A stretch of DNA of 64,000 nt, from assembly GCA_030272815.1 (NCBI GenBank), contig JAJSZT010000001.1:38337-102336 (forward strand). Direction: 5' to 3'. Positions 9,561-38,349 of the stretch are shown piece after piece. The position numbers and the translations under genes are program-made. A model generated the notes under the pieces. That model did no database searches and was not told the origin of the DNA. It worked only from the letters and a program-made list of their open reading frames with translations. Position 1 is the first letter of the stretch. Each line of letters opens with the position of its first letter. This DNA comes from Deltaproteobacteria bacterium (lineage in GTDB: Bacteria; Desulfobacterota; Desulfobacteria; Desulfobacterales; ETH-SRB1).

Positions 9561-9564
9561 TTTA

Positions 9565-22336: not shown

Positions 22337-22339
22337 ACC

Positions 22340-22422
22340 GTAGCCGTTCACGGCTTGAAACTTGAAATTGGAAAGTAGAAATTGGGAAGAACAGCACAAA
22401 AGCATGAAGGCCAAATTTCCAA
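22340..22422. repeat. family A hairpin element, short ORF-less copy
   Basis: gtagccgttcacggcttgaaacttgaaattggaaagtagaaattgggaagaacagcacaaaagcatgaaggccaaatttcc. It lies immediately upstream of the leader of array 1. Confidence 0.8.
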
Positions 22423-22453
22423 CCAAAAAAAGTAACAATGCCATATAATTTAG

Positions 22454-22650
22454 ATAGTTGTACGAAATTAAAAAAAGCCCAAAAAAAGGGGGTGGTTACA
22501 GGAAATTTATAATTATTTGTTATTGTTGATAAAGATTGTTGTTTACTATAGAAAATAAGGTAGTGAAGAGATGAAAAAAGAGACGAAAAAGAGAGGTTAC
22601 AGAAAAGGCCATTCTAAGTATCTGTATTTATTGGCTGGAAAAAGGCTGCT
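22454..22650 (+). promoter_or_regulatory. CRISPR leader copy 1 (197 nt)
   Basis: Near-identical to 34398..34594 and 36681..36877. It is preceded by atataatttag, the last 11 nt of cas2, although no cas2 is present here. Confidence 0.8.
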
Positions 22651-22988
22651 ATCTGAAACTGAGACCTGATGAATAAGGGATTGAGACGACTGGCCTTCCG
22701 CTCCAAGCACGGCGCCTTTACCAGATCTGAAACTGAGACCTGATGAATAAGGGATTGAGACAAATTATCGCGGATAGCAATAATTTTTTTATTGCTTACA
22801 TCTGAAACTGAGACCTGATGAATAAGGGATTGAGACTTAATTATTGTTTCTTCTCTTATTATAGCTTTCATTTTTATCTGAAACTGAGACCTGATGAATA
22901 AGGGATTGAGACAAACATTATAGATGATGCTTCTATAGAAGTATTTTCATCATCTGAAACTGAGACCTGATGAATAAGGGATTGAGAC
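22651..22988 (+). CRISPR. CRISPR array 1: 5 x 37-bp repeat, 4 spacers (37-39 bp)
   Basis: Repeat ATCTGAAACTGAGACCTGATGAATAAGGGATTGAGAC at 22651, 22725, 22800, 22876 and 22952. Orientation is inferred from the upstream leader and the 3-prime ATTGAGAC, which fits the 8-nt Cas6 crRNA tag. Confidence 0.95.
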
Positions 22989-23089
22989 GCCTGCGGCGCA
23001 GGGATTAGGGATGTAGTGATAAGGTCGAGCAGTTCTATAAATATACTTTGCACGGCTATAAACTGCGCTTTTTGAAACGGTCAGGATTA

Positions 23090-23192
23090 TAAGGAAAAAT
23101 CAAACCACGAAGGACACGAAGGGGCACGAAGATTAGAATTAATGCTTTTTATAATTTCTTTGTGAGCTTCGTGAGCTTCGTGGTGAAAAAAA
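23090..23192. repeat. family F palindrome (accacgaaggacacgaaggggcacgaag...cttcgtgagcttcgtggt)
   Basis: Inverted arms built from tandem cacgaag motifs. A related fragment lies at ~26010..26045. Confidence 0.7.
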
Positions 23193-23263
23193 CATAATAA
23201 AAAAGCTCAGATTTTGAGCGTTTACAAGAGCTTGAAGAAACAGTAATATAATGGAGCGGCCGA

Positions 23264-24223
23264 TTGGAAAAATTCTACTTTTCCAGATTTACGTTTTCCG
23301 TCAGATGCAAAACAACCATCTTTCTTCCATCTTACGCTGGTTCCACTCTCCGCGGCGGATTCGGCCATGCATTTCGCCGCATCATCTGTGCCTTCAAAGG
23401 CAAGGAATGCACAGATTGCCTTTTGCGGGGCCAATGTGTATATGCCTACGTCTTTGAAACACCCATTCCGGCTGATGCTCAAATAATGCGAAAATATACC
23501 GCAGCTCCTCATCCTTTTATCCTTGAACCCTTTACAAACAGCCGGAAATCCTGTCAAGAAGGAGAAGATTTCTCATTCGGCCTCACCCTGATCGGCAGGG
23601 CAACAGACTATCTACCCTATTTTATCTATGCCTTTGAAGAGCTTGGCCGTATCGGAATCGGCAAAGGCAGGGGAAAATATGAGTTGAGGGAAGTAGCTGA
23701 AGAAGGCGGCAAAGGTAACTCTCTCCAGAAAAAAAGAGTCATTTACAGTGGGGATACAAAACTCCTGACTCAAACCAATCCTCCGATACGATGGTCTGAC
23801 ATTGTTATAAACCATCCTTCGCCTCCCTCTGCAATCAGTGTCTCTTTTATCACCCCCACAAGGATCAAGTACAAAAACAGCCTCACCAAAGATCTCGAAT
23901 TTCACGTATTTTTCAGAAGCCTCCAGCGCCGCATATCGCTCCTTTCATACTTTCACTGCAACCACAGGATAGATGACACCGGATTCAAAGATCTTATTCA
24001 GCGAGCCAGGGATATTAAAATCATCAAGAGGTCGCTCTACTGGCACGACTGGGAGCGGTATTCCAACCGCCAGGAGACCCGGATGAAAATGGGGGGATTT
24101 ATGGGCGAGATTACATATGAAGGAGAGTTAAAGAAGTTCTGGCCTTATATCAAGCTGGGAGAATATGTGCATGTGGGAAAGGGGAGTGGATTTGGGTTGG
24201 GGAGGTACAGGATAGAGGAGTGA
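23264..24223 (+). CDS. cas6: Cas6-family pre-crRNA endoribonuclease (RAMP)
   Basis: STLRGGFGHAFRR near the N-terminus and a C-terminal glycine-rich loop HVGKGSGFGLGRY typical of Cas6. It lies between array 1 and the type III effector genes. Confidence 0.8.
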   Translation: MEKFYFSRFTFSVRCKTTIFLPSYAGSTLRGGFGHAFRRIICAFKGKECTDCLLRGQCVYAYVFETPIPADAQIMRKYTAAPHPFILEPFTNSRKSCQEGEDFSFGLTLIGRATDYLPYFIYAFEELGRIGIGKGRGKYELREVAEEGGKGNSLQKKRVIYSGDTKLLTQTNPPIRWSDIVINHPSPPSAISVSFITPTRIKYKNSLTKDLEFHVFFRSLQRRISLLSYFHCNHRIDDTGFKDLIQRARDIKIIKRSLYWHDWERYSNRQETRMKMGGFMGEITYEGELKKFWPYIKLGEYVHVGKGSGFGLGRYRIEE

Positions 24224-25806
24224 CTATGAATTACAGAAAACCGAAACGGATTTTTGAAGATTCCGGGACAGTTGATCCCAGAATGTCATACCATGTTGAG
24301 TTAAAGAATGTGGTTAATACAAGAAAGCAGGATATTAAAACTATGGTTGATCTGGGAAGGTACTTTTCGATATTTGCTCCCAGACAGAGCGGCAAGACTA
24401 CGTTTTTTGAAGGTTTCTGCCGCAAGCTGGAAAAAGACCCTGCCTACGCGGCCATCCTTCTTAGTTTCCAGAGATACAAGAACCTCGATATACAAAGATT
24501 TTATCAATTAGTTCAAAGAGATTTTTATAGCCAACTAACCGACAGGCTCGAAGCCGTGAATTGTCCAAAGCTGGATGCCATAAGAGCGTATCTAAATACC
24601 CATAATTTAACAGATCATATCTCGTTCAGTGAACTCTTCGAAGAATTAAACCGGAAAATAGAATTCAAGAAAATCGTTATCCTTATAGATGAATTTGACG
24701 GCATACCAATTAATGAACTGGAGAATTTCCTTACTACCTTAAGAGATCTGTATCAGAAATACAAGAAACGCACCAGTAAGGCTTTATATTCTGTCGGTCT
24801 GGTCGGTATTCGTAACATCACAAAATTGATTGTGGGCGGTGTTTCCCCCTTTAATATCGCTGATCAGGTAAAACTTCCACCTTTTACTCTAAAGAACGTC
24901 CAAGACCTTTATAACCAGTATACAGAGGAAACCAACCAGCCCTTTACCGAAGATGCAGTAAAAAAGGTATTTAATGAAACAGCCGGCCAACCCTGGCTGG
25001 TGAACCGGCTTGGGACGATTCTGACGGTTGACATAAAACCGGAAACCACGGATCCAATCACCGCAGAAGATGTGGAAAAGGGAATAATGCATCTCCTTAA
25101 AGAAAGAAACAGCCACTTCGATAATCTTTTTGAAAAAGCAAAATTGTACAAAGAGACCTTTGTACAAATCACATTTAATGGGGTTGACTATAGTCCCGAT
25201 AATGAAGATCAATCATGGCTGGAACAATATGGTCTAATCAAGGAGAAAAATAATAATGCTGTTGTGGCCAACGCAATATACAAAAGACGATTCTTAAAGG
25301 CTTTTTTTCAAGAATCCGGGGCAATCGCAGATACTTCACTTAAGGCCTATTTTACTTCCGATGGTTTTTTAAACATGAAAGCTGTTTTATCTGATTTTGA
25401 GGAATACATCATGCAGATAGGTGTAAATGCCTTTTATGCAAGCCAAAAGCCATACGAAAAGACAGGACAATTCCTGCTCACTGCCTGGCTGTATCAGTTT
25501 GTGGAACAGGGAAAAGGGGAGCTCAGTTTTGAGGTTTCAACCGGATTAGGTAGAATCGATATTCTGCTGACCTATCAAGGCAGAAAATACATTGTAGAGA
25601 CCAAAATAAATCGCTCAAGCTTTGAAAGAACTGCGCAAAAGGCGATTGATCAGCTTTGCGGCAAGTATCTTTTAACCGAGCGTGCAAATGAAGGATACGT
25701 AGTGATTTTTGATCCTAAAACAACAGTGGGTGAATTATGCACGCCGCAAGAACGGCTGGTGCAAGGGAAAAAGATATTGATCTTTAATATCGGTATAGGA
25801 AGGTAG
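24220..25806 (+). CDS. AAA-ATPase-like protein with C-terminal PD-(D/E)XK nuclease-like domain
   Basis: Walker A FAPRQSGKTTF, Walker B IVILIDEFD, and a C-terminal GRIDILLTYQGRKYIVETKI (D...ExK). The start (GTG 24220 or ATG 24226) overlaps or abuts the cas6 stop. Confidence 0.7.
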   Translation: MTMNYRKPKRIFEDSGTVDPRMSYHVELKNVVNTRKQDIKTMVDLGRYFSIFAPRQSGKTTFFEGFCRKLEKDPAYAAILLSFQRYKNLDIQRFYQLVQRDFYSQLTDRLEAVNCPKLDAIRAYLNTHNLTDHISFSELFEELNRKIEFKKIVILIDEFDGIPINELENFLTTLRDLYQKYKKRTSKALYSVGLVGIRNITKLIVGGVSPFNIADQVKLPPFTLKNVQDLYNQYTEETNQPFTEDAVKKVFNETAGQPWLVNRLGTILTVDIKPETTDPITAEDVEKGIMHLLKERNSHFDNLFEKAKLYKETFVQITFNGVDYSPDNEDQSWLEQYGLIKEKNNNAVVANAIYKRRFLKAFFQESGAIADTSLKAYFTSDGFLNMKAVLSDFEEYIMQIGVNAFYASQKPYEKTGQFLLTAWLYQFVEQGKGELSFEVSTGLGRIDILLTYQGRKYIVETKINRSSFERTAQKAIDQLCGKYLLTERANEGYVVIFDPKTTVGELCTPQERLVQGKKILIFNIGIGR

Positions 25807-26172
25807 GTGTATTTTATTGGGGAGATCCTTTCCTCTCCTTTCCTCTTGATCTCATTGTGCGGAGGTCTGCGGATGTTGACCGCAGATTTAGATTGGGGGA
25901 TTTTTTTATAAAGGAGATTGTGTAGGAAGGCAAGATACTGTATGAAAAAACTGCCTGATGATTTGGAATGGTCATAATTGACCGGATGCCGGTATTATTT
26001 CGTTCGGTTTTTTTCACCACAAAGAACACGAAGATAAAATCATTTATATTTTGGCTGTTTTTGATTACCACGCAGCACATTGTATTTTATATAGCTTAGT
26101 AGTTATAACCTACGACCGTAATACCTTTAACTTTTGAGAAGTTGCCTCAATATAGTTACAAAAGAGGTGGAT

Positions 26173-28560
26173 ATGAATCGTATTGAACCTGTCTTAAAGG
26201 CTATCCTTATAGAGGGATTGCAAAAAGTTCGTGAGTGGTTTTTAAGAAAAAATGTTTCATACCTTCGATCAATTTTCGATCAAGTCGGCTTTATCGACAC
26301 AAATGAAATGTCGGATATCTATTATGTGCCGCCTTATAGCCTGACATCTGAGATCATATATCCGGTCAAGAGTAAGAACCCTCTCCTTGATGAGGTCAGA
26401 TCAAAAACATATAACGAAATATTTACTCAACACCACAGCTTTAATGACGATTATCTTGCCGGCCTTCCTGTAAACAGGCTCTTATTCTTGCTCGAAAAAT
26501 TTGGTGGAACCGTCCCTGTTGATGGAGACAGTACTATCTCAATATTTGATATGTACAAAATAATGGGCGCCAAAACCATTGTAAGATTAAACAGGGAAAC
26601 ACTTAAACATGAACAGGGAAACCTGATAATAAATATTGATCTGTCTGGAATACAAAGATTTATTTACAACATTGTTTCGCGAGGCGCTCTAAAAAACCTA
26701 CGATCCCGCTCTTTTTTTATCGAACTCTTATGTGGTCATGCCGTTAATCGTGTAATAAACAGTTTTAACCTGCACCAAGTTAATGTTCTTATGAATGGTG
26801 GCGGCAATGTAAAGATTCTATCAAGCAAACCTTCAAACCACAAAGAATTGCTGGATAATATCGACTGCGATATGAATTTATGGCTGTCTGAAGAATTCAA
26901 CGGGAGGTTAAATCTTGTCCTTACGTCCGTAGAAACATCTGACCGCGATATGAACGGTGACATTTCAAAATTGCTAAATAAGATTTCGGCTAAATCTTTT
27001 ATAAAGAAAAACAGGAAATTCGACTTACTTATCCAGAGAGATGAGCTTTCATTTGTAGATAAAGAGGATCCTGGCTACCAGCGCTGCGAGATATGCGGCA
27101 AGGACTTTACTCCACAAACCGGCCAAAAAAAAGCTGAGCATGAGGAAAGTTTAAGGTGTGCATTCTGTGAAAAGTTGGTGCGCCTTGGCAACATTATTCC
27201 GGAGGCAAAGTACATATATTTGTCCAAGAAAGATATGCACTGTTCTTTTCAGATACAGATAGAAGATTATTTCTATTTGCTCTCAAAAGAAAAAGAGAGG
27301 GAATTGAAGTGTGCCTGGGTCATCTTTGATAACAGAAAGGGTTTTCATGATGACCTTACTGCCTCAGAAGTTACTTTATTTGCTAGAACCTGTATAGTAA
27401 AAACCGAGATGTTGCCAAAGGATGTATATGAGCAAATTGATAAAAAAAAGAAAGAACTCAAGGTCGTGCTGAAAAAGAGCGAGGATTCTCAAGAGAAACA
27501 ATGGCTAAGAGATGAGATTGATTCTCTTTCAGATGAACATCCTGCTATGCTCGAACACCTGGCTAATTCTTCGGAAGGAGCAAAACTCATAGGCGCATTG
27601 AGAATGGATGCAGATAATATAGGAAAAATTCTGTATAAAGGGTTTTATGGAAATGCCACCCTCGAAAAAGTCTCATCATTTTCACGAAACCTTAACTACT
27701 TTTTTAAACTTTACCTGGAGTCAACTTTCAAGCCAAATAGAATTCAACAAAGGGAAAAGAGAAGATTAATCCACGTAATCTATGCCGGAGGAGACGATCT
27801 TTTTGCCCTTGGTACATGGAATGATATCGCCGAACTTTCGCTATGCATAAACAAAACTTTTGGGAAATATACCTGTCAAAATATAGACCTTGGACTCAGC
27901 GCCGGTTTTACTATCCACAAGCCTAAATTTCCTGTAAGCAAGATGGCAGATTTATCATTAGCGGCCCTGAATTATTCCAAAGACAATTTGGAGCCGTGCT
28001 GGTTTTGCCGAAAAAAATGGCTTGAATGCCCCCTTTTTAGAAATGGAAACTGTCTCAGAAAGGATTCTGTTACGCCGTTTTTTACGGAATACAAAGCAGC
28101 TCTTAAATATAGACTCGATAAGGAGTTTATCCTGAAGTATTCGTCCGAACCTTCCAGGCTGAAGTTGAGTTTCAGGCGAAAACGATTTATCAAAGAGTTA
28201 CAAAGAGTTGAAGATGAAGTTGAAAAATTCGTTTTTAAACCTTTTAAAGTATTTACTGCGGATAATGTACCCCAGCGCCGCAGCGGTTTTATGCATAACG
28301 TCTTGAACATGCTTGAAGTGTGGTATTCAGACGGTCTTATCTACCTGCCTAAAATTGCATGGCTGTTGCAAAAGCAAAGAGAAGAATTGCAACGTATAAT
28401 CGAAGAAGATACAAGAGAGTCTATGTATGATCTCTATGATCAACATCTTCACCTTGCCACACCCCGTATGCTGTCCGCACTTCACATTCCGCTATCGTGG
28501 GCAATATTGTTGATGAAAGAAGGAGGAAAGAGAGATGAATCCAGAACCAATGGAAGATAA
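26173..28560 (+). CDS. cas10: Cas10 (type III large subunit), cyclase motif intact, no recognisable HD dyad
   Basis: Palm1 IDLSGIQRFIYN and RSRSFFIELL. Zn cluster CEICGK...CAFCEK. Palm2 VIYAGGDDLFALGTW. No His-Asp dipeptide occurs in the first ~400 aa. ATG 26173 is preferred (AGAGGTGG upstream) over TTG 26134. Confidence 0.9.
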   Translation: MNRIEPVLKAILIEGLQKVREWFLRKNVSYLRSIFDQVGFIDTNEMSDIYYVPPYSLTSEIIYPVKSKNPLLDEVRSKTYNEIFTQHHSFNDDYLAGLPVNRLLFLLEKFGGTVPVDGDSTISIFDMYKIMGAKTIVRLNRETLKHEQGNLIINIDLSGIQRFIYNIVSRGALKNLRSRSFFIELLCGHAVNRVINSFNLHQVNVLMNGGGNVKILSSKPSNHKELLDNIDCDMNLWLSEEFNGRLNLVLTSVETSDRDMNGDISKLLNKISAKSFIKKNRKFDLLIQRDELSFVDKEDPGYQRCEICGKDFTPQTGQKKAEHEESLRCAFCEKLVRLGNIIPEAKYIYLSKKDMHCSFQIQIEDYFYLLSKEKERELKCAWVIFDNRKGFHDDLTASEVTLFARTCIVKTEMLPKDVYEQIDKKKKELKVVLKKSEDSQEKQWLRDEIDSLSDEHPAMLEHLANSSEGAKLIGALRMDADNIGKILYKGFYGNATLEKVSSFSRNLNYFFKLYLESTFKPNRIQQREKRRLIHVIYAGGDDLFALGTWNDIAELSLCINKTFGKYTCQNIDLGLSAGFTIHKPKFPVSKMADLSLAALNYSKDNLEPCWFCRKKWLECPLFRNGNCLRKDSVTPFFTEYKAALKYRLDKEFILKYSSEPSRLKLSFRRKRFIKELQRVEDEVEKFVFKPFKVFTADNVPQRRSGFMHNVLNMLEVWYSDGLIYLPKIAWLLQKQREELQRIIEEDTRESMYDLYDQHLHLATPRMLSALHIPLSWAILLMKEGGKRDESRTNGR

Positions 28561-29023
28561 GCTTTTAAAACAATGGAACCTTAACACGGAAAAGGATATC
28601 AAGGCAAAAATATTCGAGGACTATGCCGAAGGCGACAAACTCACACATATCCTTGACGGCGAAAAGCTTGTCGCATGCAGCTATGCACTGGGCCGGATAC
28701 TTGCGAGCTATAATGTTGGACTAAAGACAGCTCAGTTGAGACGGTTTTATGGATCATTATTGAACATAAAAGCCTCTGCAAATCGTATCAGGGCAGAGTC
28801 TGGGACTGATAACACATTTAAATCTAAGATTATTCCTCAAATACTAATGTTAAAACCATTACTCGCGAATGCAAAGGCAAGACATCGACGGGCAATAACC
28901 CCTTTTTTTGAGGTTATGAATCCGTTGTTCGATGTTGTTAAGGATGGAGATGATTACGATCGGTTTTGCGATTTTGTCGAAGCGATCGTGGCTTATCATA
29001 AGTACTGTGGCGGCAAAGACTAA
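28535..29023 (+). CDS. csm2: Csm2/Cas11-like small subunit
   Basis: 162-aa helical protein between cas10 and csm3. AGGAGG lies 8 nt upstream, and the gene overlaps the cas10 end by 26 nt. Assignment is mainly positional. Confidence 0.65.
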   Translation: MNPEPMEDKLLKQWNLNTEKDIKAKIFEDYAEGDKLTHILDGEKLVACSYALGRILASYNVGLKTAQLRRFYGSLLNIKASANRIRAESGTDNTFKSKIIPQILMLKPLLANAKARHRRAITPFFEVMNPLFDVVKDGDDYDRFCDFVEAIVAYHKYCGGKD

Positions 29024-29044
29024 ATTGTAGAGGAGATTTTCATC

Positions 29045-29956
29045 ATGGGTCAAAACGGACAAAGAGTTTTCTTGGGAAAGGTGTTCTTTAGAGGTAAAAT
29101 TATTCTCAAAACAGGCATGCATATAGGAGGTTCTCAGGAATCAATGCAGATAGGCGGCGTTGACTCTCCAATTATCAGGGACTCAGGAAACAATCTTCCT
29201 TATATTCCTGGAAGCTCCTTAAAAGGGAAACTAAGGAGCACTCTTGAAAAATTCGGAAAAAGGATCAAAGAAGGAAAAGAAGAGAAGTTATCATCCAACA
29301 GGAGCATAGGAACATTCAGACAAAAGGTTTTTATACACTGCTGTGAAGACATTCAGCTTGCCCTTAACTGTGAGGTCTGCCGTATATTTGGTGCAACTGG
29401 AGATGATCGGGAGTTTCAAAAAGGCAAAAAAGATCGGAGAGGCGATAAAGCAGGTAACTTTCCTGCATTATTAATGGTTAGGGATTCCCTTCTTGATGAT
29501 GCCTTTATGCATCCATCCCGCCTTCTTACAGAGGTAAAAACAGAAACAGGGGTGGACAGGTCAACCATGGCGGCAAATCCGAGACAGGTAGAAAGGCTTT
29601 TGCCTGATACAGCCTTTATTTTTGAGATGGTCTATTCCGTGGAAAATATTACTTTGGCTGGAAAAGCTAAGACAAATTTTCCTGAAGCCAATCTCAAGAC
29701 CGATCTGGACAATATCCTGACATGTATGGAGATAATTGAAAGTGAGGGAATAGGTGGGCATACATCAAGGGGATACGGTAAGGTGAGTTTTGTGTTCACC
29801 GAATTTTCAGGAAGATCTCTTGACTACTTTAAGGGTAAAACAGAAAAGGAGAAAGAGAAATCTGATGGCGGCTTTTCGATTCAGGAAGCAAGGGAAAAGA
29901 TAGATGAGATTGTAAAATTGCTACAAAAGGAACCAGAAAATGCTGTTTCTGATTAA
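29045..29956 (+). CDS. csm3: Csm3/Cas7 RAMP backbone subunit
   Basis: LKTGMHIGGSQESMQIGGVDSPIIRDSGNNLPYIPGSSLKGKLRS, the Csm3 N-terminal signature including the Asp of the RNase site. Also CEVCRIFG and GGHTSRGYGKV. Confidence 0.9.
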   Translation: MGQNGQRVFLGKVFFRGKIILKTGMHIGGSQESMQIGGVDSPIIRDSGNNLPYIPGSSLKGKLRSTLEKFGKRIKEGKEEKLSSNRSIGTFRQKVFIHCCEDIQLALNCEVCRIFGATGDDREFQKGKKDRRGDKAGNFPALLMVRDSLLDDAFMHPSRLLTEVKTETGVDRSTMAANPRQVERLLPDTAFIFEMVYSVENITLAGKAKTNFPEANLKTDLDNILTCMEIIESEGIGGHTSRGYGKVSFVFTEFSGRSLDYFKGKTEKEKEKSDGGFSIQEAREKIDEIVKLLQKEPENAVSD

Positions 29957-30887
29957 GTTAAACTTTAAAGGAACGCTTGCTGTAGGAGGGAATGAGTTCG
30001 GAGAAAGCAACGTTCTCAGAGGCGCTGTTCATTCCGATACGCTATTTAGCGGCATTGTCAACCAATGGGTAAAGATACCTGCTGCATACGACATTGACCA
30101 TCTGATTTCCAAGTTGAATTCCAATTCTCCGCCTTTTAGAATATCTTCTGCTTTCCCCTATCACGGAACCGAATATTATCTGCCTATACCTCGCGGCACA
30201 GATGAACTGTACATGGACATATCAAAGGATGTTCCTTATCTCGAACTTTCGGATTTTCTCGAACTTGCAAATGGAAAGAGGGGACGCCTCGCCAAGATTC
30301 CACGAAAGAATCCTGCTGCTGAATTTATAACCGGTCTTACATCACCAAGAGTAACTATAGATAGACTTGCAAATGTTTCTAATCCTTATCAACTCACAGG
30401 ATGTAAAATGGCTGAAGGCAGCGGTCTTTATTTCCTTCTGAATATCCAGGATAAAACAATCAAAGATACCCTTGAATTATGCATCAGGATGCTCGGAGAC
30501 GCTGGCATTGGAAGTGATAGAAATGTAGGATATGGAACTTTCGATCCAGAAATCAGTCCAATATCAGACGATTCCAACTGGACGGAACTGTTTCTTGATA
30601 GAACAGGCGAAGTGATAAGTTATTGTACGCTTTCACTCTGTTGTCCTGCTAATAATAGTGAGGCTAAAGAGGCCATTTCCTACGGGATCATTTCAAGAAA
30701 CGGCTGGATACTTTCAAACTCATCTTTCGTGCAGATGAAACGAAGAGAATGCAAGATGTTTTCCGAAGGTTCTCTGTTCAAAAGTCCGATTAAGGGATGC
30801 GCGGCTGATGTTACGCCATCTGTTTTTAGACAGGAACATAATGTTTATCGCTATGGATTGGGGATGATGGTTGCGGGAGCTTGGTGA
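29940..30887 (+). CDS. csm4: Csm4/Cas5 RAMP subunit
   Basis: GAVHSDTLFSGIVNQW near the N-terminus and GDAGIGSDRNVGYGTF glycine-rich loop. Overlaps csm3 by 17 nt. Confidence 0.85.
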   Translation: MLFLIKLNFKGTLAVGGNEFGESNVLRGAVHSDTLFSGIVNQWVKIPAAYDIDHLISKLNSNSPPFRISSAFPYHGTEYYLPIPRGTDELYMDISKDVPYLELSDFLELANGKRGRLAKIPRKNPAAEFITGLTSPRVTIDRLANVSNPYQLTGCKMAEGSGLYFLLNIQDKTIKDTLELCIRMLGDAGIGSDRNVGYGTFDPEISPISDDSNWTELFLDRTGEVISYCTLSLCCPANNSEAKEAISYGIISRNGWILSNSSFVQMKRRECKMFSEGSLFKSPIKGCAADVTPSVFRQEHNVYRYGLGMMVAGAW

Positions 30888-31914
30888 GATGGAAGAATCC
30901 ACTGGACTTTTATCAGAAGTGGAAGAATTCCTGAATGACTATCGAAAAGACTTGTACAGCCTAAATGATGAGGCATGGTCGATATTTCAGGAATGCTATA
31001 GAAGTATAGGTATAGACTATGAACATTCTCATGGTTTTTTTATCGATATAGGAAAGAAAATAGAATCGATGGAGAACTTTTATAATATTAAAGCAAAATC
31101 AGAAGAACTTGAAAAAGCAAGAGCAAACTGTCTTCTGGAATATTATCAACTTGCCAGTCGCAACCCAAATCATAACCAAAAATCAGATAAATGGAATTCT
31201 TTTGCAAACAAGGTTCAAGAAATTATTAATTTGAACGAATTGGCTGTAAGTATGTTGCTGGATAAAGCAAGCACTGCCTATGAAAAAATAATAACTTGTC
31301 CATATGGTAAACAGAAAAACAAAAACATCAATGCCTCATTATTCGAAAAAAAGGTTTCGGAGTTTTTTGATTGGCTATTCATAAGTGCGTTGGGAAGGGT
31401 GGATTTAACGGAAATTGAAACCTATCGCCTGCGGAGAGACTGGGTATACAAGGTGCGTGATGAATTTGATACCTTAGAAAAGTGCGGTTTCCCATTCAGG
31501 GACATACTTATTGAATGCAAAAATTTTGCACAACCCAAGTATCCATCATTAATGCAAGTATTTGTTTACACTTTGAGCTGTCAGGATTCAGAAATATCAA
31601 AAGTGCCTCTTTCTCAGCCCAACGCCGGTAGCATACATGGGGTTGTTTACCGTCAGGATTCAGAAATATCAAAAGTGCCTCTTTCTCTGCTAATAAGCCG
31701 AAAAAACCCTGACAGAGAGAGCACCATATGGAGAATAAGACGTGCTATATTTAACAAACCTATGAAGAAAGAAACCAGACTTATTCTCTTTCTGGATGAC
31801 CACGATTTGGGCAAGATGTTAGAAAATAAGCAGAAAGGGATTGACCCCGCATTGGTATTAAAGGAAAAAATAGCAGAACTGGAAAGATCGAATATTCAAC
31901 ATGGAGGAATTTAA
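30871..31914 (+). CDS. uncharacterised protein in the csm5 position; helical N-terminal half plus possible PD-(D/E)XK nuclease core
   Basis: No RAMP G-rich loops. The candidate core is VRDEFD...FRDILIECKNF (D...ExK). It is translationally coupled on both sides (overlaps the csm4 stop; TAATG junction with the next gene). Alternative start at ATG 30889. It contains a 24-codon repeat-insert-repeat (see findings). Confidence 0.55.
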   Translation: MRELGEMEESTGLLSEVEEFLNDYRKDLYSLNDEAWSIFQECYRSIGIDYEHSHGFFIDIGKKIESMENFYNIKAKSEELEKARANCLLEYYQLASRNPNHNQKSDKWNSFANKVQEIINLNELAVSMLLDKASTAYEKIITCPYGKQKNKNINASLFEKKVSEFFDWLFISALGRVDLTEIETYRLRRDWVYKVRDEFDTLEKCGFPFRDILIECKNFAQPKYPSLMQVFVYTLSCQDSEISKVPLSQPNAGSIHGVVYRQDSEISKVPLSLLISRKNPDRESTIWRIRRAIFNKPMKKETRLILFLDDHDLGKMLENKQKGIDPALVLKEKIAELERSNIQHGGI

Positions 31915-32930
31915 TGCCACAAAAAATCGAAGTGCCTAATATCACAGTCTTTGAAGGCTTGCTCGCTATCTGGAAGCAAAGAGACTACGATTTATATTTT
32001 TATTTTAACGAAATATTTGATAAGGCACTTACAGCCCTTAAATCAAGAATAAAGGCCAGCGCAATCCAGTTGGCCACAGGAAATGAACCTGTCTATAAGG
32101 CAATGTTTCTTCCAGTTGGCTTTAAAATAGAAAATATTGCTCTTATCGCTGTTCTGTTCAGGCCGCTTCACTTGACGCTAGCCTTTTCCGAAACAACGAG
32201 AGCATGTCATAGAAGCTATTTCCATATCGTAGAGAATAAAATAAAGCAATATTGCCCTTCCGTTATAATTGACAAAATTCCTCCTATAGCCAGCGATGAT
32301 CACCACCATATGGAGAAAAAAATTAAAGACTGGGCGGAGAAGATTAAGAATGAGCACAGATATTCGAAGGCCCAACTGGCCATTGATATTACCGGCGGTA
32401 CCAAACCAATGTCCATTGGGGCACAGAATGCGGCCAAGTCGCTTGACATCCCAGCATTCTATTTGAGCGTTGATTACGATACAGATACACAACTCCCTAT
32501 CCCGGGGACTGAATCATTAGTCGAGATGCAACGGTCATATACTGATCCGGACTTGGTCTTTGTCATAATGCCTTTTAGTAGCGAATTGGATTCGGTTTAT
32601 GGGTGCATAAAAGAATCTGTTAGAGAGGTTCAATTACGATGTGTCCGGGTTGACGAAGAGGTATTTTCCGGCAGTATTATGGAAAGAGTAAGAGGAAACA
32701 TATACAAAGCAGGAATAATAATCGCAGAACTTTCAAAACATAATCCCAATGTCTATTTTGAACTTGGATTGGCATACGCCAAAAAGAAAAAGATAATTAT
32801 GATCACACAAAAGATACAGAAAGTGCCTTTTGATCTCAAGCACTTGAGAATGGTCATATATAAGCCCAACGATATTAACCGCCTAAAAGAAAAGCTTAAG
32901 ACTGAATTGGTCGCTTTGAAATCTGCCTAA
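31914..32930 (+). CDS. CARF-domain protein fused to nucleoside-2-deoxyribosyltransferase/TIR-like domain
   Basis: CARF features AMFLPVGFKIENIALIAVLF and AIDITGGTKPMSIGAQNAA. The C-terminal Rossmann-like module reads LVFVIMPF...AGIIIAELS...NPNVYFELGLAYAKKKKIIMI. Confidence 0.65.
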   Translation: MPQKIEVPNITVFEGLLAIWKQRDYDLYFYFNEIFDKALTALKSRIKASAIQLATGNEPVYKAMFLPVGFKIENIALIAVLFRPLHLTLAFSETTRACHRSYFHIVENKIKQYCPSVIIDKIPPIASDDHHHMEKKIKDWAEKIKNEHRYSKAQLAIDITGGTKPMSIGAQNAAKSLDIPAFYLSVDYDTDTQLPIPGTESLVEMQRSYTDPDLVFVIMPFSSELDSVYGCIKESVREVQLRCVRVDEEVFSGSIMERVRGNIYKAGIIIAELSKHNPNVYFELGLAYAKKKKIIMITQKIQKVPFDLKHLRMVIYKPNDINRLKEKLKTELVALKSA

Positions 32931-33114
32931 CAAAATCAAAATTAGTGAACTGATGCTGAAACGGAGATGGAAAGATTGGTTATTTTTTTTAAATTGCAAT
33001 GGGATTAGCAAATAAGCTTGAATATCATATGCTCCTCATTCGTGATCTCTATATGTTGAACAGTGCATTATCCTGTTATTCCTGTTTATCCTGTCAAAAA
33101 CCAAAATAGAAAAA

Positions 33115-34116
33115 ATGGCCAATCTTTACCTGACAGAGCAAAACTCAATCCTCCGCAAAACCGGCGACAGACTTATTGTGCAAAAAGCCGATGAAATCCT
33201 TCTTGATGTGCAATGCCACAAGATAGATGCAGTCCTTATCTTCGGAAATGTCCAGTTCACCACTCAGGCTGTGCATGAACTTTTTGAGCATGGCATAGAA
33301 ATGGCCATTCTCTCGCGAAGAGGAAGACTGATAGGACAGATAACATCTCCAGCTACAAAAAATATCACTTTGCGCGTCCAGCAGTTTGAAAAGTACACTG
33401 ATAATGAATTCAGGCTGAAGTTGTCTATTGAAATTGTAACTGGAAAAATCAATAATTCTCTTAAAGTTATCCGTCATTTTTCTTACAATCATCCTGATAT
33501 TGCACTTAAATCCGAGACTGCTGCTTTAAAAACATCACTCGAAAACGTTAAATCTGCCAGCCGGATTGACCAACTGTTGGGACTGGAAGGAGGAGCGGCT
33601 AAGACCTATTTTAGCGCATTTGGCAAGATGATTATTGGCGAGTTCAATTTTACGGGCAGGAAAAAGCGCCCTCCCACAGATCCGGTTAATGCAATACTTT
33701 CTTTAAGCTACACAATGATCTTTAATGAAATATCATCACTTTTAGACGGGTTAGGCCTTGATCCCTATCTCGGTTATTTTCATAGCGTTGACTACGGGAG
33801 AGCATCTCTTGCCGCAGACCTTATTGAAGAATTCCGGGCGCCGATAGCTGACCGTTTTACACTCAATCTCATAAACAATCGAATTGTCGGGGAAGAAGAT
33901 TTTTACACAAATCCCAAAGGCGCCGGGGTTTATCTGAAACGTGAAGCATTAAAGCGTTATTTTACAGAATACGAAACTATGCTCAACCATGAATTTATCC
34001 ATCCGAAAACAAAGGAAAATACCACTTTTAGAAAGTGTTTTCGCTTACAGGCAGAGAATCTTGCTTTGACAATTCAAAACGACAGCTCATATATTCCTTT
34101 TGCTCTGGAGATATAG
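33115..34116 (+). CDS. cas1: Cas1 integrase
   Basis: LLGLEGGAAKTYF, RPPTDPVNAILS and GYFHSVDYGRASLAADLIEEFR (Cas1 catalytic E/H/E context). 333 aa. Confidence 0.95.
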   Translation: MANLYLTEQNSILRKTGDRLIVQKADEILLDVQCHKIDAVLIFGNVQFTTQAVHELFEHGIEMAILSRRGRLIGQITSPATKNITLRVQQFEKYTDNEFRLKLSIEIVTGKINNSLKVIRHFSYNHPDIALKSETAALKTSLENVKSASRIDQLLGLEGGAAKTYFSAFGKMIIGEFNFTGRKKRPPTDPVNAILSLSYTMIFNEISSLLDGLGLDPYLGYFHSVDYGRASLAADLIEEFRAPIADRFTLNLINNRIVGEEDFYTNPKGAGVYLKREALKRYFTEYETMLNHEFIHPKTKENTTFRKCFRLQAENLALTIQNDSSYIPFALEI

Positions 34117-34121
34117 CCTGC

Positions 34122-34397
34122 ATGTTTTACCTTGTTTCATACGACATACCCGACGACAAACGGAGAACCAAACTTGCAAAAACCATTAAGAATTTTGGAG
34201 ACAGGGTTCAATATAGTGTTTTTGAGTGCATCCTGGACAAAAACCTCCTTGACAAAATGGCAGACAGAATAGATAAAATCATCGTTGAAAAAGAAGACAG
34301 CGTACGCATCTATTGTCTTTGCGCGAACTGTGAAAGGGAAATCAGGATAATCGGCAAGGGAGAAGTGTCTAAAAACGAAGATGTGTATATAATTTAG
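34122..34397 (+). CDS. cas2: Cas2
   Basis: MFYLVSYDIPDDKRRTKLAKTIKNFGDRVQYSVFEC is a canonical Cas2 N-terminus. ATG 34122 is chosen because the upstream part of ORF 34035 overlaps cas1. Confidence 0.95.
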   Translation: MFYLVSYDIPDDKRRTKLAKTIKNFGDRVQYSVFECILDKNLLDKMADRIDKIIVEKEDSVRIYCLCANCEREIRIIGKGEVSKNEDVYII

Positions 34398-34594
34398 ATA
34401 GTTGTACGAAATTAAAAAAAGGCCAAAAAAAGGGGGTGGTTACAGGAAATTTGTAATTATTTGTTATTGCTGATAAAAATTGTTGTTTAGGACGGGGAAT
34501 AAGGTGGTGAAGAGATGAAAAAAGAGACGAAAAAGAGAGGTTACAGAAAAGGTCATTCTAAGTATCTGTATTTATTGGCTGGAAAAAGGCTGCT
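34398..34594 (+). promoter_or_regulatory. CRISPR leader copy 2 (197 nt)
   Basis: Starts right after the cas2 stop and is near-identical to the leaders at 22454 and 36681. Confidence 0.85.
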
Positions 34595-35237
34595 ATCTGA
34601 AACTGAGACCTGATGAATAAGGGATTGAGACTGATAAACCATGCAGCAGCATCAGTAAGATAATGATTCAATCTGAAACTGAGACCTGATGAATAAGGGA
34701 TTGAGACTTTTTTGCTAAATCAGTATATGTTTTAAAACTACCTATTATCTGAAACTGAGACCTGATGAATAAGGGATTGAGACTCGCGCCACATTAACCT
34801 GAAAACGGGAGCCAAGTTATCATCTGAAACTGAGACCTGATGAATAAGGGATTGAGACTTTTAAAAGTATTGCCATTTATACCAAGTCCGTTACTCTATC
34901 TGAAACTGAGACCTGATGAATAAGGGATTGAGACCTGGGGGGTTATAAATGCATACATCAGAGATTTGTTTATCTGAAACTGAGACCTGATGAATAAGGG
35001 ATTGAGACTGTTGCAGAGCTATTTATACCTGCCTGGATACCATCAATTATCTGAAACTGAGACCTGATGAATAAGGGATTGAGACTATGTAAGCTCCGAT
35101 GTTCTGTTTATAATCTCGTTGATCTGAAACTGAGACCTGATGAATAAGGGATTGAGACTCCGTAAACACCTTGCTGTTGTTAAACCCGGCAGTTCCTATC
35201 ATCTGAAACTGAGACCTGATGAATAAGGGATTGAGCG
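34595..35237 (+). CRISPR. CRISPR array 2: 9 repeats (last one degenerate), 8 spacers (36-42 bp)
   Basis: Repeats start at 34595, 34671, 34747, 34822, 34898, 34972, 35049, 35122 and 35201. The terminal repeat ends ...gattgagcg instead of ...gattgagac. Confidence 0.95.
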
Positions 35238-35298
35238 CCTGCGGCGTAGAGATGTAGGGATGTAGGGACGTAGAGATGTAGGAAAGTAGAGGAGGAAG

Positions 35299-35385
35299 AT
35301 GGGGAAGATAGAATCTTTCAGGGAGTTAACTGTTTGGCAAAAATCCCATCAGTTATTTTTGGATATTGCAAATGATGTGGAATGA
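35299..35385 (+). pseudogene. 5-prime fragment of a four-helix-bundle (23S rRNA IVS/Avd-like) gene in the array trailer
   Basis: Encodes MGKIESFRELTVWQKSHQLFLDIANDVE then a stop, matching the family N-terminus (F..L.VWQKa..L). It is preceded by tandem gtag(a/g)gat motifs. Homologous trailer pieces lie at 22989..23033 and 38204..38349. Confidence 0.6.
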
Positions 35386-35429
35386 TGAATGATGAAAGCG
35401 GAATGATGAATAATAAGGAGGTAAATAGC

Positions 35430-35684
35430 ATGGAGGATGTCTTAACCATCCATATTCCTGACGAAATTCGGCAGAAGCTAAATCGCACGCCCGAAGAAAT
35501 GTGCCGTGATATTCGCATTTACGCTGCATTAATGCTTTTCCGTCTCGGGAAATTATCTTCAGGAGCGGCGGCATTAATGGCGGGAATTCCCCGCGTGATG
35601 TTCCTGGATCTGTGTGCGGAATATAATATTCCTATCTCGCAAATCACTCCGGAGGAACTACGTCGAGAGGTAAGCGATGCATAA
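35430..35684 (+). CDS. UPF0175-family antitoxin
   Basis: LRIYAALMLFRLGKLSSGAAALMAGIPRVMFLDLCAEYNIP is typical of UPF0175. AAGGAGG precedes ATG 35430, and the gene overlaps the PIN gene by 8 nt. Confidence 0.75.
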   Translation: MEDVLTIHIPDEIRQKLNRTPEEMCRDIRIYAALMLFRLGKLSSGAAALMAGIPRVMFLDLCAEYNIPISQITPEELRREVSDA

Positions 35685-36177: not shown

Positions 36178-36187
36178 AAGGCATGTA

Positions 36188-36462
36188 ATGTTTACCTTGT
36201 CTCTTACGACATACCCGACAACAAACGGAGAACCAAACTTGCAAAAACCATTAAGGATTTTGGAGACAGGGTTCAATATAGCGTATTTGAATGTTTACTC
36301 GATAAAAGTCTCCTTGACAAAATGACTGGCAGAATAGATAAAATTATCGTTGAGAAAGAAGACAGTGTACGCATCTATTGTCTTTGCGCAAACTGTGAAA
36401 GGGAAATCAGGGTAATCGGCAAGGGAAAAGTGACTAAAAACGAAGATGTGTATATAATTTAG
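36188..36462 (+). pseudogene. cas2: second cas2 copy, frameshifted just after the start codon
   Basis: About 90 percent identical by eye to cas2 at 34122..34397. It reads atgtttaccttg where the intact copy reads atgttttaccttg (T4 to T3). The Cas2 frame then has no start codon until an internal Met. Confidence 0.8.
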
Positions 36463-36580
36463 GTAGCCGTTCACGGCTTGAAACTTGAAATTGGAAAGTA
36501 GAAATTAGGGAGAGATAAAATAGAAATTGGGAAGAACGGTATAAAAGCATGAAGGCCAAATTTCCAATTTCTAATTTCGG
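36463..36580. repeat. family A hairpin element inserted between the cas2 pseudogene and leader 3
   Basis: gtagccgttcacggcttgaaacttgaaattggaaagtagaaattaggg...catgaaggccaaatttccaatttctaatttcgg. tatataatttag occurs at 36451..36462 and again at 36669..36680, separated by this element plus ~90 nt of additional sequence. Confidence 0.75.
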
Positions 36581-36680
36581 CATTGTTAAATAAGAATAGG
36601 TTTAAACAATTTTTATTGTATTATTTCAACGCATTGAGATAAATAAAACTATCCAAAATTAACAATGCTATATAATTTAG

Positions 36681-36877
36681 ATAGTTGTACGAAATTAAAA
36701 AAAGGCCAAAAAAAGGGGGTAGTTACAGGAAATTTATAATTATTTGTTATTGCTGATAAAAATCGTTGTTTATGATGGGGAATAAGGCGGTGAAGAGATG
36801 AAAAAAGAGACGAAAAAGAGAGGTTGCAGAAAAGGCCATTCTAAGTATCTGTATTTATTGGCTGGAAAAAGGCTGCT
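36681..36877 (+). promoter_or_regulatory. CRISPR leader copy 3 (197 nt)
   Basis: Near-identical to the leaders at 22454 and 34398. Confidence 0.85.
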
Positions 36878-37216
36878 ATCTGAAACTGAGACCTGATGAA
36901 TAAGGGATTGAGACATGTTTTATAGCTTCCCAAAAATGTGTAACTTGATCAGATCTGAAACTGAGACCTGATGAATAAGGGATTGAGACGCAATATATCC
37001 CTGAACTTTGCCAAGATATAGATCAATTATCTGAAACTGAGACCTGATGAATAAGGGATTGAGACTTCGTTTTTTCTAACTGTTGGACCAACTGTTCCCG
37101 CTGTATCTGAAACTGAGACCTGATGAATAAGGGATTGAGACACAAAGAACTGAAATAGAGATTGTGCTCGTTTGTTAGAATCTGAAACTGAGACCTGATG
37201 AATAAGGGATTGAGAC
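36878..37216 (+). CRISPR. CRISPR array 3: 5 repeats, 4 spacers (38-39 bp), 3-prime end disrupted
   Basis: Repeats start at 36878, 36953, 37029, 37105 and 37180. There is no degenerate terminal repeat or trailer directly after 37216. Confidence 0.95.
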
Positions 37217-37411
37217 TCATCTCGGAGTTCCGTAATTATCGTTTTTTCTATTCCAAATGAAATCAGATGGCAGCCACTACTTGGCAACAATGCCCTTATG
37301 GTTAGCTCCAGGGATATGAATTCAGGGGGAGGAGACGGTTATGGAAAAAAGTGAACATAGCATTTTGGATTTTGGATTGCGGAATCTCGTGAAGAAAGGA
37401 GGTAAACTTCT

Positions 37412-37693
37412 ATGAACGTAGTTCTCAAAAAACAATTAAATGAAATGACGGACAGTGAACTTAAGTATCTCCTTAAAAGAGATTACTTGAGAAGGCTTAC
37501 CCGCTATAGGATGACCGACGATTATTACAGGGCAAAATATGAGATGGACTTTGATAACTTCGAGAAGGCAAATATTGTTCGCGACCAAAACTATAGCTTT
37601 GAGGTGGAATCGCATGCTCAGGAATGGGAACTTGCAATTGATGGGATTAAGACGATCAAAAAGAAGCTGAAGGAGCTTTCTCGTGAAACTTAG
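37412..37693 (+). CDS. hypothetical small protein (possible antitoxin-like partner)
   Basis: 93-aa ORF with AAGGAGG 8 nt upstream. It overlaps the next ORF by 11 nt. I recognise no family. Confidence 0.45.
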   Translation: MNVVLKKQLNEMTDSELKYLLKRDYLRRLTRYRMTDDYYRAKYEMDFDNFEKANIVRDQNYSFEVESHAQEWELAIDGIKTIKKKLKELSRET

Positions 37694-38003
37694 CGGTATT
37701 ATTAGCGAAGCCAATGATGTCGCAGAAAAATACAACTTGCAACTTGTGGAAATAGACAGTACCGATAATATCATTAGCCTGAAATTATTGATAGACAATG
37801 ATCTATTTATCCAAGTATATGGAAATGCACAAAAGGACAAGCTCAATCTTGCCCTTGCTGTCATTCCCTTGATGCTCCCGATGAACATATCTTTGTTGAT
37901 GACAGGAAATCTATCGGAGACTTTGTTTGTGAATCGATGGAATTCCTGGAAAGCAGGGATATATTATAGACCTGATGTTCCTGGATCTGTGCGCAGAATA
38001 TAA
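37683..38003 (+). CDS. hypothetical protein, probably truncated by rearrangement
   Basis: 106-aa ORF. Its 3-prime end runs into the 147-bp duplicated toxin-antitoxin segment starting at 37973, so the C-terminus is likely not native. Confidence 0.35.
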   Translation: MKLSGIISEANDVAEKYNLQLVEIDSTDNIISLKLLIDNDLFIQVYGNAQKDKLNLALAVIPLMLPMNISLLMTGNLSETLFVNRWNSWKAGIYYRPDVPGSVRRI

Positions 38004-38119
38004 TATTCCTATTTCACAAATCACACCGGAGGAACTGCGTCGAGAGGTAAGCAATGCATGAACAGTCATTAGTTTGCGACACATCGTTGCTGCTATACTT
38101 AGGACGTATGGAGAACGAA
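37973..38119 (+). repeat. 147-bp duplicate of the UPF0175 3-prime end / PIN 5-prime end
   Basis: Aligns with 35596..35742 (tgatgttcctggatctgtg...cttaggacgtatggagaacgaa) with scattered substitutions. Confidence 0.85.
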
Positions 38120-38180
38120 AAACAAGTTAATTTCCTCTATCACTTTGTCCATCTGTCCCTATCCCCTTCAGCGCAAAGCG

Positions 38181-38349
38181 CTGTTGAATAAGGGATTGAG
38201 CGCCTTCGGCGCAGGGATTAGGGACATAGAGACGCAGGGATGTAGAAAACTAGAGTGAGGAAGATGGGAAGGATAGAATCTTTTAGTGGGTTAACTGTTT
38301 GGCAATAATCCCATCAGTTATTTTTGACCGAGCCCTAAGGTCGAGCAGT
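38181..38349 (+). repeat. orphan degenerate terminal CRISPR repeat fragment plus conserved trailer
   Basis: ctgttgaataagggattgagcg matches the last 22 nt of the degenerate terminal repeat. It is followed by ccttcggcgcagggattaggg... and a four-helix-bundle gene fragment (MGRIESFSGLTVWQ then stop). Confidence 0.75.

Follow-up and report, generated by a model that had tools for sequence, protein, structure and literature searches.

The window, by which we mean the whole 64,000-nt stretch of contig JAJSZT010000001.1 analysed here and to whose positions all plain coordinates refer, holds a genuine multi-array CRISPR locus of type III-A (Csm), with its cas genes, in a Desulfobacterota bacterium. 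Three intact leader-array units, called modules below, and the remnant of a fourth are present in the locus, and the type III-A operon (23264..34116) lies between arrays 1 and 2, on the forward strand like the arrays, leaders, toxin-antitoxin genes and inserted elements described below. The operon begins with cas6 (23264-24223), which matches PF10040, and a gene for an AAA_35/PD-(D/E)XK-like ATPase (24220-25806) stands between cas6 and cas10. Assignment to the Csm type rests on four profile matches, all over their cut-offs: cas10/csm1 (26134-28560; TIGR02578, 387 bits against a cut-off of 170), csm2 (28535-29023; TIGR01870, 64 bits against 30.6), csm3 (29045-29956; TIGR02582, 161 bits against 90) and csm4 (29940-30887; TIGR01903, 227 bits against 55). 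The position of csm5 is taken by an open reading frame (ORF; 30871-31914) for which family searches gave no match, followed by a gene for a CARF protein (31914-32930), by cas1 (33115-34116) and by an intact cas2 of 91 aa (34122..34397), the last two scoring above their profile cut-offs. The exact Cas2 sequence was not on record in the assembly collection. Both the CARF protein and the ATPase are possible ancillary effectors of this type III system. The C-terminal region of the CARF protein weakly matches nucleoside 2-deoxyribosyltransferase and TIR-like domains.

All three arrays are built from one 37-nt repeat, ATCTGAAACTGAGACCTGATGAATAAGGGATTGAGAC, which occurs 19 times in the window against 0 expected. 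That the arrays are three in number had been stated in a preliminary description made from the letters of this DNA; every sequence feature listed there was found again at the positions given. The copies are identical in 18 of 19 cases, the exception being the degenerate terminal repeat of array 2. Array 1 (22651..22988) has five identical repeats and four spacers. Array 2 (34595..35237) has nine repeats and eight spacers, and its last repeat, ending in GAGCG, retains nt 1-35 before the hairpin of an inserted cassette begins. Array 3 (36878..37216) again has five identical repeats and four spacers, with neither a degenerate terminal repeat nor the trailer that follows the other two arrays, and its distal end is rearranged. 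Regularly placed and nearly identical repeats, unique spacers, a conserved leader and nearby cas genes identify these blocks as CRISPR arrays. The repeat RNA is essentially unstructured (-4.2 kcal/mol, z score -1.2), and CRISPR RNAs (crRNAs) with an 8-nt ATTGAGAC handle are the predicted processing product.

Relatives were collected by two scans, and the loci retrieved for comparison are given L-numbers. Scanning one genome per species with the 3' half of the repeat returned 53 loci, and scanning metagenomes with the start of the leader returned 18 further loci, whose flanking genes are 93-96% identical to those of the window. Syntenic relatives, at 93-97% identity, are metagenome-assembled genomes (MAGs) of Desulfobacterota; an anammox host, suggested by the presence of the repeat's 3' half in Brocadiaceae, was rejected on that ground. 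No two of the 16 spacers (36-42 nt) are alike, the best pairwise local score being 11, in line with the preliminary description. None is shared with the related loci, including relatives whose flanks are 94-97% identical, and no target was found in the rest of the window; two leader-proximal spacers searched against viral contigs gave no match. Spacer contents are fully independent between arrays, as was expected under the earlier proposal that each copy acquired its own.

Each array is preceded by a 197-nt leader (22454..22650, 34398..34594 and 36681..36877), and the near-identity of the three, already noticed at first reading, amounts to 93.9% (1 vs 2), 93.4% (1 vs 3) and 95.9% (2 vs 3). The motif GGTTACAGRAAA occurs twice in each of them (22494-22505 and 22595-22606; 34438-34449 and 34539-34550; 36721-36732 and 36822-36833). 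Measured from the first repeat it stands at about -56 and -156/-157, fixed distances that recur in essentially every leader belonging to this repeat family, and the pair spans phyla, including anammox Planctomycetota and Nitrospirota (L007, L008, L011, L020, L023, L026, L035, L038 and others). For leaders of this family the pair makes a candidate signal, used either in transcription or in the integration of spacers. A small ORF within the leaders (ATG at 22566, 34510 and 36793, running 32 codons into repeat 1, with a Shine-Dalgarno-like AAGGTGG) was considered and rejected: variant states by codon position number 8, 10 and 7, without a third-position excess, and the conserved portion of the putative frame is the GGTTACAG motif at the DNA level.

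Duplicated modules and the decay of cas2

Two features absent from the preliminary description bear on how the modules are related. One is a cas2 pseudogene (36188..36462) upstream of leader 3, with a 1-nt deletion after the ATG that leaves the Cas2 frame without an in-frame start. Between array 2 and this dead cas2 lies a toxin-antitoxin pair (35430-36177), composed of a UPF0175 antitoxin gene (35430-35684) and a DUF3368 (PIN-like) toxin gene (35677-36177), both inside a broken cassette of the family called Family B below; the same arrangement is seen in L019 and L064. The other feature is a 147-nt duplicate (37973..38119) that takes in the 3' end of the antitoxin gene and the opening 14 codons of the toxin gene. 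Twice in succession, therefore, the locus reads cas2, leader, array, trailer and toxin-antitoxin, a tandem duplication with its left edge at the cas2 start codon. The divergence of the ordered parts is comparable, with identities of 90.9% between cas2 and the pseudogene (DNA), 95.9% between leaders 2 and 3, 93% for the toxin-antitoxin fragment and 88-91% for the trailer fragments.

One relative, L064, has the tandem order too: it runs cas1-cas2-leader-array-GAGCG-trailer-toxin-antitoxin-dead cas2-leader-array-GAGCG-trailer, and its dead cas2 has the identical 1-nt deletion. In other relatives, 3' fragments of cas2 precede the extra leaders, with lengths of 36, 40, 91, 103, 113, 122, about 150 (148-152), 202 and 210 nt. 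On this evidence the modules are paralogues, copied from a unit that formerly adjoined cas2. To this extent the earlier proposal, a segmental duplication of the cas2 end together with leader, repeats and trailer, is borne out in the descent from a cas2-adjacent unit; what has to be revised is any recent date, the role of the 12-nt tail and the reading of trailer, orphan and Family A.

Before every leader, including leader 1, stand the last 11-12 nt of cas2, as had been pointed out, and they formed one end of the copied unit proposed there. Before leader 2, this sequence, TATATAATTTAG, is simply part of the intact cas2. Before leader 3 it is found at 36669-36680 with a second copy at 36451-36462, and the two copies flank a 206-nt insertion (36463..36668) consisting of the left part of a Family A element (36463-36579) and a nested inverted-repeat element (36580-36668). 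The insertion site is empty in L064, L062 and L019, in which cas2 or its stump meets the leader and the 12-mer occurs only once. What stands before leader 3 is thus a target duplicate that arose by insertion, and not a duplication breakpoint. Before leader 1, the tail CATATAATTTAG (22442-22453) is the right flank of the same kind of insertion. There, the left part only of a Family A element (22340..22422), with the left terminal inverted repeat (TIR) GTAGCCGTTCACGG and GAAATTGG units, abuts the stop of a PPDK-like gene, and is followed by the right end of the nested element (..TAACAATGC) and then by CATATAATTTAG (22423..22453), a segment equal to window 36653-36680. Module 1 has the insert of module 3 less 85 nt (36568-36652), equally far from its leader. 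The 11-12 nt of cas2 to the right of this insert show that leader 1, too, formerly adjoined a cas2 end, in line with the descent first proposed. The flanks of the 22340 copy mismatch, which is the pattern of recombination or element-mediated adjacent deletion; its junction is also seen in L019 for the first 21 nt, and no orphan Family A right end that could have been its recombination partner was found in the window.

Family A hairpins had been noted at two of the module junctions (22340 and 36463), and two more copies start at 9415 and 58564. The former is a complete short element (9415..9565; fold z score -3.8) between 8-bp duplicates TATTTTTC at 9407-9414 and 9566-9573, and a single TATTTTTC marks the empty site in L057 and L070. 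The latter (58564..58870), between 8-bp duplicates GAATTTAT, carries a truncated ORF (58616-58831) that matches PF05635 (E 1.2e-11). The family has the TIRs GTAACCGTTCACGG (left) and CCGTGAACGCTTAC (right), the right end reading GTAAGCGTTCACGG in reverse complement (58857-58870), and its left ends GTAACCG and GTAGCCG differ by 1-2 mismatches from GTAAGCG. Inverted repeats starting GTAAGCG and 8-bp direct repeats are hallmarks of the IS66 family of insertion sequences (PMC11946415, citing Ross et al. 2021). Judged by these ends, by the 8-bp target duplications and by presence/absence polymorphism among relatives, Family A is a mobile IS66-like miniature inverted-repeat transposable element (MITE); its copies lack a transposase, and none was identified in the window. 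It resembles IS66 insertion sequences and MITEs in the ends GTAACCGTTCACGG/GTAAGCGTTCACGG, the target duplications and the empty site in relatives, and differs from them in that a PF05635 ORF is enclosed by long arms built from short tandem units and that, in one relative (L032), an element with Family A ends is inserted inside a terminal CRISPR repeat, with the duplicate TGAATAAG.

Other species-level assemblies have modules 1, 2 and 3 as well, and also the cas2 pseudogene, marked by the identical 1-nt deletion. Seven metagenome contigs retain the junction at which the PPDK-like gene, Family A, CATATAATTTAG and leader 1 meet, the segment PPDK-module 1-cas6 recurs in the independent assemblies L054, L058, L059 and L071, and the segment from cas2 through module 2, the toxin-antitoxin pair and the cas2 pseudogene to module 3 recurs in L064 and L062, again independently assembled. 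L004 and L016 contain an intact leader and a three-repeat array with a clean end beside a histidine kinase gene, the gene that in the window follows an orphan repeat piece. Modules and frameshift being shared with other assemblies, the copies are not recent events of this genome; comparison among assemblies places the copying of the array modules before the split of these species. In leader trees the three leaders of the window form no exclusive clade, leader 3 pairing with its positional counterpart in L019, and the identity of window leaders to leaders of other genomes reaches 96%, equal to the level within the genome. Because the copies predate the species split and leader identity within the genome is not above that between genomes, dating the copies by pairwise divergence, the check suggested at first, is unreliable.

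These comparisons also bear on other accounts of the three arrays. That a single array was mis-assembled as three has next to no probability. Identical repeats and near-identical leaders do confuse short-read assemblers, and one array of a relative does hold a gap of N and duplicated spacers, but each array of the window has unique spacers and flanks, the leaders differ at 8-13 positions, and the layouts around module 1 and from cas2 to module 3 were each reproduced by the independent assemblies given for them above. The odd array (L019:3280-3790, with a run of N and two spacers repeated) is probably an assembly artefact of that public MAG and not of the window. The earlier model in a literal form, with recent copying within this genome of the 12-nt cas2 end, leader, repeats and trailer, with the tail as breakpoint and spacer acquisition thereafter, is improbable: the 11-12-mer common to all three leaders, the shared trailer start after array 1, array 2 and the orphan, and the uniqueness of the spacers are what it predicts, but it does not accommodate a 12-mer that flanks a 206-nt insert at leader 3 while cas2 or its stump runs straight into the leader in relatives, a full-length dead cas2 before module 3, an array 3 without a trailer, leader identities no higher within the genome than between genomes, or modules and a dead cas2 common to other assemblies.

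PF05635 cassettes at the ends of arrays

The trailer start common to array 1, array 2 and the orphan (at 22988, 35236 and 38201), recognised in the preliminary description as the same sequence, is a hairpin, CGCCTGCGGCG or CGCCTTCGGCG, followed by GGGAT-type units. It is not specific to the arrays; it is the 5' arm of a PF05635 cassette, which we call Family B. A full copy in L001 consists of a hairpin GCCTGCGGCG behind a single repeat, GGGAT-type units, a 124-aa ORF and a complementary TCCC-type arm, and the ORF matches PF05635 over its full length (E 1.3e-31, 109 bits against a cut-off of 33.8). In L019, a Family B copy lies inside a repeat, the left flank ending ..ATGAATAAGGGAT and the right flank resuming ATGAATAAGGGATTGAGAC, and the element folds as one long stem (-94.6 kcal/mol, z score -7.4); an internally deleted copy in L027 has a weaker fold (z score -1.7).

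Copies in the window are partial. Trailer 1 (22988..23046) is a 5' hairpin with an arm of about 30 nt and then TAAGGTCGAGCAGT..AAATAT, which recurs at 38336-38359. Trailer 2 (35236..35385) has the hairpin CGCCTGCGGCG, GTAGGGAT-type units and the start of the PF05635 ORF, whose first 28 codons (MGKIESFRELTVWQKSHQLFLDIANDVE, then a stop) are retained before the toxin-antitoxin pair breaks it; an iterative search with jackhmmer placed this fragment (35299) in PF05635 with E 6.7e-11. A 3' part (38114..38183), absent from the preliminary description, meets the toxin fragment at a hexamer common to both, AACGAA (38114-38119), and contains the last ORF codons, a TCCC-type arm and the hairpin CAGCGCAAAGCGCTG. 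Behind it comes the orphan repeat piece TTGAATAAGGGATTGAG (38184..38200), repeat nt 19-35, and then trailer 4 (38201..38359), a second 5' arm with a decayed ORF start (MGRIESFSGLTVWQ, then a stop) followed by TAAGGTCGAGCAGT..AAATAT. The orphan, described at first as the remnant of a further module copy, is a true piece of repeat, but it lies between the 3' arm of one cassette and the 5' arm of the next. The corresponding kinase-proximal site is free of a cassette in L004 and L016, where the terminal repeat is intact.

The Family B 5' arm abuts the 3' end of a repeat three times in the window and in at least six related MAGs (L001, L003, L019, L027, L029 and L045), with junctions after repeat nt 31, 35 and 36/37. 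All of these are downstream of the predicted Cas6 site, so that no spacer is lost, which would explain the persistence of such insertions at the distal end of arrays.

It may be asked whether trailers descended with their modules at all, or whether the same cassette family was inserted independently and site-specifically into each last repeat. Cassettes inside repeats with flanking duplicates in L019 (13 nt), L012 (about 15 nt) and L032 (8 bp), the differing junctions, an array end beside the kinase gene that is empty in L004 and L016 and filled in the window and L045, and cassettes with unrelated arms at the same position in other phyla all favour separate insertion. In L064, however, the trailers of modules 2 and 3 share the GAGCG junction, the arm and the ORF start, from which it follows that a trailer was co-duplicated with its array at least once, and in the window trailers 1 and 4 have in common a truncated structure that is presumably immobile; in both cases copying with the array end is simpler. 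Independent insertion is in our judgement less likely than not, though better placed than the literal copying model.

The association with array ends extends beyond the window. The 53 repeat-selected loci and the window together have 15 PF05635 ORFs, and 11 of them start no new neighbourhood of their own but fall in the 1 kb downstream of an array end, on the strand of the array, a region making up 7.2% of the sequence (binomial P about 3e-10). As these loci had been chosen by the repeat, the association was retested starting from the protein: homologues of the L001 ORF were gathered, and nine clusters, 59-98% identical, were viewed in their contexts. Five of the nine immediately follow the final repeat of their array, and three of the arrays concerned have 15 to 25 repeats of related but different sequence; one was 1 kb from cas6, one was in a housekeeping neighbourhood directly behind a solo repeat-like piece, and two had no CRISPR feature in the retrieved context. 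The solo piece, ACATTGACCTGATTAAGAAGGGATTG (L087:1870-1960, and at the same place in L088), is right before the cassette hairpin with no array, which would mean either that the site once had an array, now decayed, or that the cassette carries some repeat sequence along when it moves.

Every array-associated PF05635 ORF is co-directional with its array. Anammox Planctomycetota, other members of that phylum and an unclassified bacterium have, behind the last repeat, cassettes with very different arm units, and these lineage-specific cassettes often begin immediately behind ..AATAAGGGA (repeat nt 30). On the other side of the L012 cassette a stretch of about 15 nt is a duplicate of part of the repeat, and tandems of cassette, repeat piece and cassette recur among the loci. 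Array-end cassettes, right behind the last repeat or inside it, were located in distant phyla at L012:1481-2373, L032:460-820, L015:4400-4863, L028:3300-3950, L035:4500-5100, L026:650-1200, L041:1500-2120 and L009:4700-5335, and in L075, L078-L085, L091 and L095. Additionally, toxin-antitoxin pairs recur beside or inside array-end cassettes (window 35430-36177, L095:2518-3213, L091:2770-3393 and L015), with varying families (UPF0175/DUF3368, PhdYefM/PIN and HigB/HTH).

We tentatively propose, as a plausible reading that is still open to doubt, that this clade of PF05635 cassettes is a specialised colonist of CRISPR arrays, settling in or after the last repeat of arrays whose repeats end ..AAGGGATTG(A/C)GAC, in Desulfobacterota, Planctomycetota (anammox), Nitrospirota and others. 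Such cassettes would be co-directional with the array, leave duplicated pieces of repeat, be able to stack, and perhaps use read-through and crRNA processing. Speculatively, a cassette behind the last Cas6 site of a transcribed array could be expressed by read-through and freed by crRNA processing, which would parallel its 23S rRNA relatives that ride rRNA transcription and RNase III processing.

The same cassettes might be supposed to bracket the leader-array modules and to move them as composite elements, by recombination or transposition. Family A does lie to the left of modules 1 and 3 and Family B to the right of modules 1 and 2, cassettes or their arms are also found in front of cas2 stumps in L001 and L036, and the mismatched flanks of the 22340 Family A copy fit recombination or adjacent deletion. 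Yet all modules found remain in the same locus, between the PPDK and kinase genes, and none was seen at a new address with target duplications, which makes composite movement a poor candidate.

Proposed history of the locus and its known counterparts

Taken as a whole, the locus is, in our judgement with good probability, a set of old paralogous leader-array units with mobile PF05635 cassettes at their borders. At least one event in its history was the tandem duplication of a block of cas2, leader, array, terminal repeat, cassette and toxin-antitoxin genes. The spare cas2 copies later decayed, to the frameshifted full-length copy of the window and to the 36-210-nt stumps of relatives, and the leaders would have been kept almost unchanged because the whole of their approximately 197 nt is functional. 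Insertions, microhomology deletions and recombination at cassettes, the cassettes acting as rearrangement substrates, would have led to the present mosaic. The module borders noticed at first reading are the footprints of non-autonomous PF05635 cassettes with long inverted arms. From known type III systems, each leader is expected to drive transcription of its own array and to direct Cas1-Cas2 to the first repeat, Cas6 to cut 8 nt before the end of the repeat, and the Csm complex to use the resulting crRNAs, a single Cas1-Cas2, Cas6 and Csm set presumably serving all units. Separate acquisition sites of this kind would explain why non-terminal repeats are identical and yet no spacer is shared. 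We consider the anatomy of the locus and the paralogy and age of its units to be demonstrated, and likewise what the cassettes are, that they are mobile and that the leader motif is conserved; we infer that every leader is expressed and supports adaptation, and in what order the locus was rearranged.

Several observations weigh against this history. A scan of 34300-35450 for sigma-70 consensus promoters and terminators found nothing in leader 2. The leader tree, except for the pair of leader 3 and L019, is not sorted by genomic position and, for most leader pairs, does not separate orthology from gene conversion. The dead cas2 of the window is 93-95% identical to the live cas2 of L056, L061, L062, L064, L065 and L068, above the 87-91% of the live cas2 of the window against relatives, and cas1 is 87-90% identical to that of the same six loci while flanking genes stand at about 95%; this hints that the cas1-cas2 region of the window may have been exchanged, which pure in-place duplication does not foresee. 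Modules 1 and 3 have the same insert at the same site, one old and one young, and trailers 1 and 4 share a truncated structure though their modules are not adjacent. Both facts need extra events beyond the model, such as gene conversion from an unseen paralogue or recombination between modules. Finally, duplications flanking Family B are unequal (13, 15-18 and possibly 17 nt) and define no single mechanism of insertion.

Several arrays that share repeat and leader under one cas operon are familiar from the type I-E pairs of E. coli, from Haloferax and from Sulfolobus, and the multi-array layout itself is of this known, ordinary kind, with identical repeats, conserved leaders, independent spacers and one machinery. 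The present locus differs from these in that the origin of its arrays can be read from a dead cas2, from graded cas2 stumps in relatives and from a co-duplicated toxin-antitoxin fragment. Together with its relatives it is an unusually readable record of how an extra array originates, by tandem copying and cas2 decay with retention of the full leader.

The cassettes at array ends are the less expected result and the part worth following up. PF05635 proteins are encoded by intervening sequences of 23S rRNA genes in Leptospira, Coxiella and others, which RNase III excises from the rRNA precursor. The cassettes share with these the protein family (E 1.3e-31), the placement of the ORF within a long imperfect stem, and a host that is a transcribed, endonucleolytically processed non-coding RNA gene; they differ in that the copies are in the terminal repeats of arrays or in intergenic DNA instead of a 23S rRNA helix, and in that target duplications are visible. 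To our knowledge, the movement of 23S rRNA intervening sequences has long been unclear, and the elements with the intervening-sequence gene described here have TIRs, target duplications and empty sites. If the colonist reading holds, two processed-RNA genes would be linked as habitats of one element type, and part of the reported association of PF05635 with CRISPR adaptation modules would be explained.

The sole earlier mention we found is that association, entered by Altae-Tran et al. 2023 (PMC10910872) as UAS-8 ('23S rRNA IVP + DUF2325 + RT sometimes') and tied there to CRISPR acquisition genes. Both data sets tie PF05635 genes statistically to CRISPR adaptation modules. UAS-8 is a gene-neighbourhood link in a cyanobacterial context, with DUF2325 and reverse transcriptase, and fusion to the terminal repeat, target duplications and co-orientation are not described there. 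A literature search found no description of PF05635 cassettes in CRISPR repeats or at array ends, and the main text of two systematic surveys of CRISPR-linked genes does not mention the family. Insertion sequences are known to transpose into cas genes and inactivate them (PMC10359306), and in the present locus, too, mobile elements have landed and remodelled their surroundings; unlike in those cases, they sit at the distal repeat or in the gap between cas2 and leader, with the predicted Cas6 site and the spacers intact.

Other features of the window

An Rfam scan of 22000-39000 at gathering thresholds returned zero matches. A further stem-loop element, Family C (23104..23184), has arms of CACGAAG units (-35.2 kcal/mol, z score -6.3), and a Family C segment in L056 lies between the trailer of module 2 and the histidine kinase gene. 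More intergenic stem-loops with arms of short tandem units were observed at 11754-11935, 42523-42640, 51277-51503, 54436-54494, 61079-61221 and 63208-63409, the arm units of such stem-loops in the window including CACGAAG, GGCTGAAG, TTCGATG and GCAGAGG, and the genome seems to be strewn with kin or derivatives of these cassettes. The inverted repeat 54436-55154, with 669 nt between its arms, was considered as another PF05635 cassette and rejected, the ORF inside being unrelated.

Downstream of array 3, a segment (37262..37358) that terminates in about 12 nt resembling cas2 has its homologue in L004 and L045, where it stands ahead of the cas2 tail and leader in the kinase-proximal module. Two overlapping small ORFs (37412-37693, 93 aa, and 37683-38003, 106 aa), to which family searches assigned no match, also lie between array 3 and the toxin-antitoxin fragment. 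The first of them recurs with 97.6% DNA identity in L019, in that case downstream of another module.

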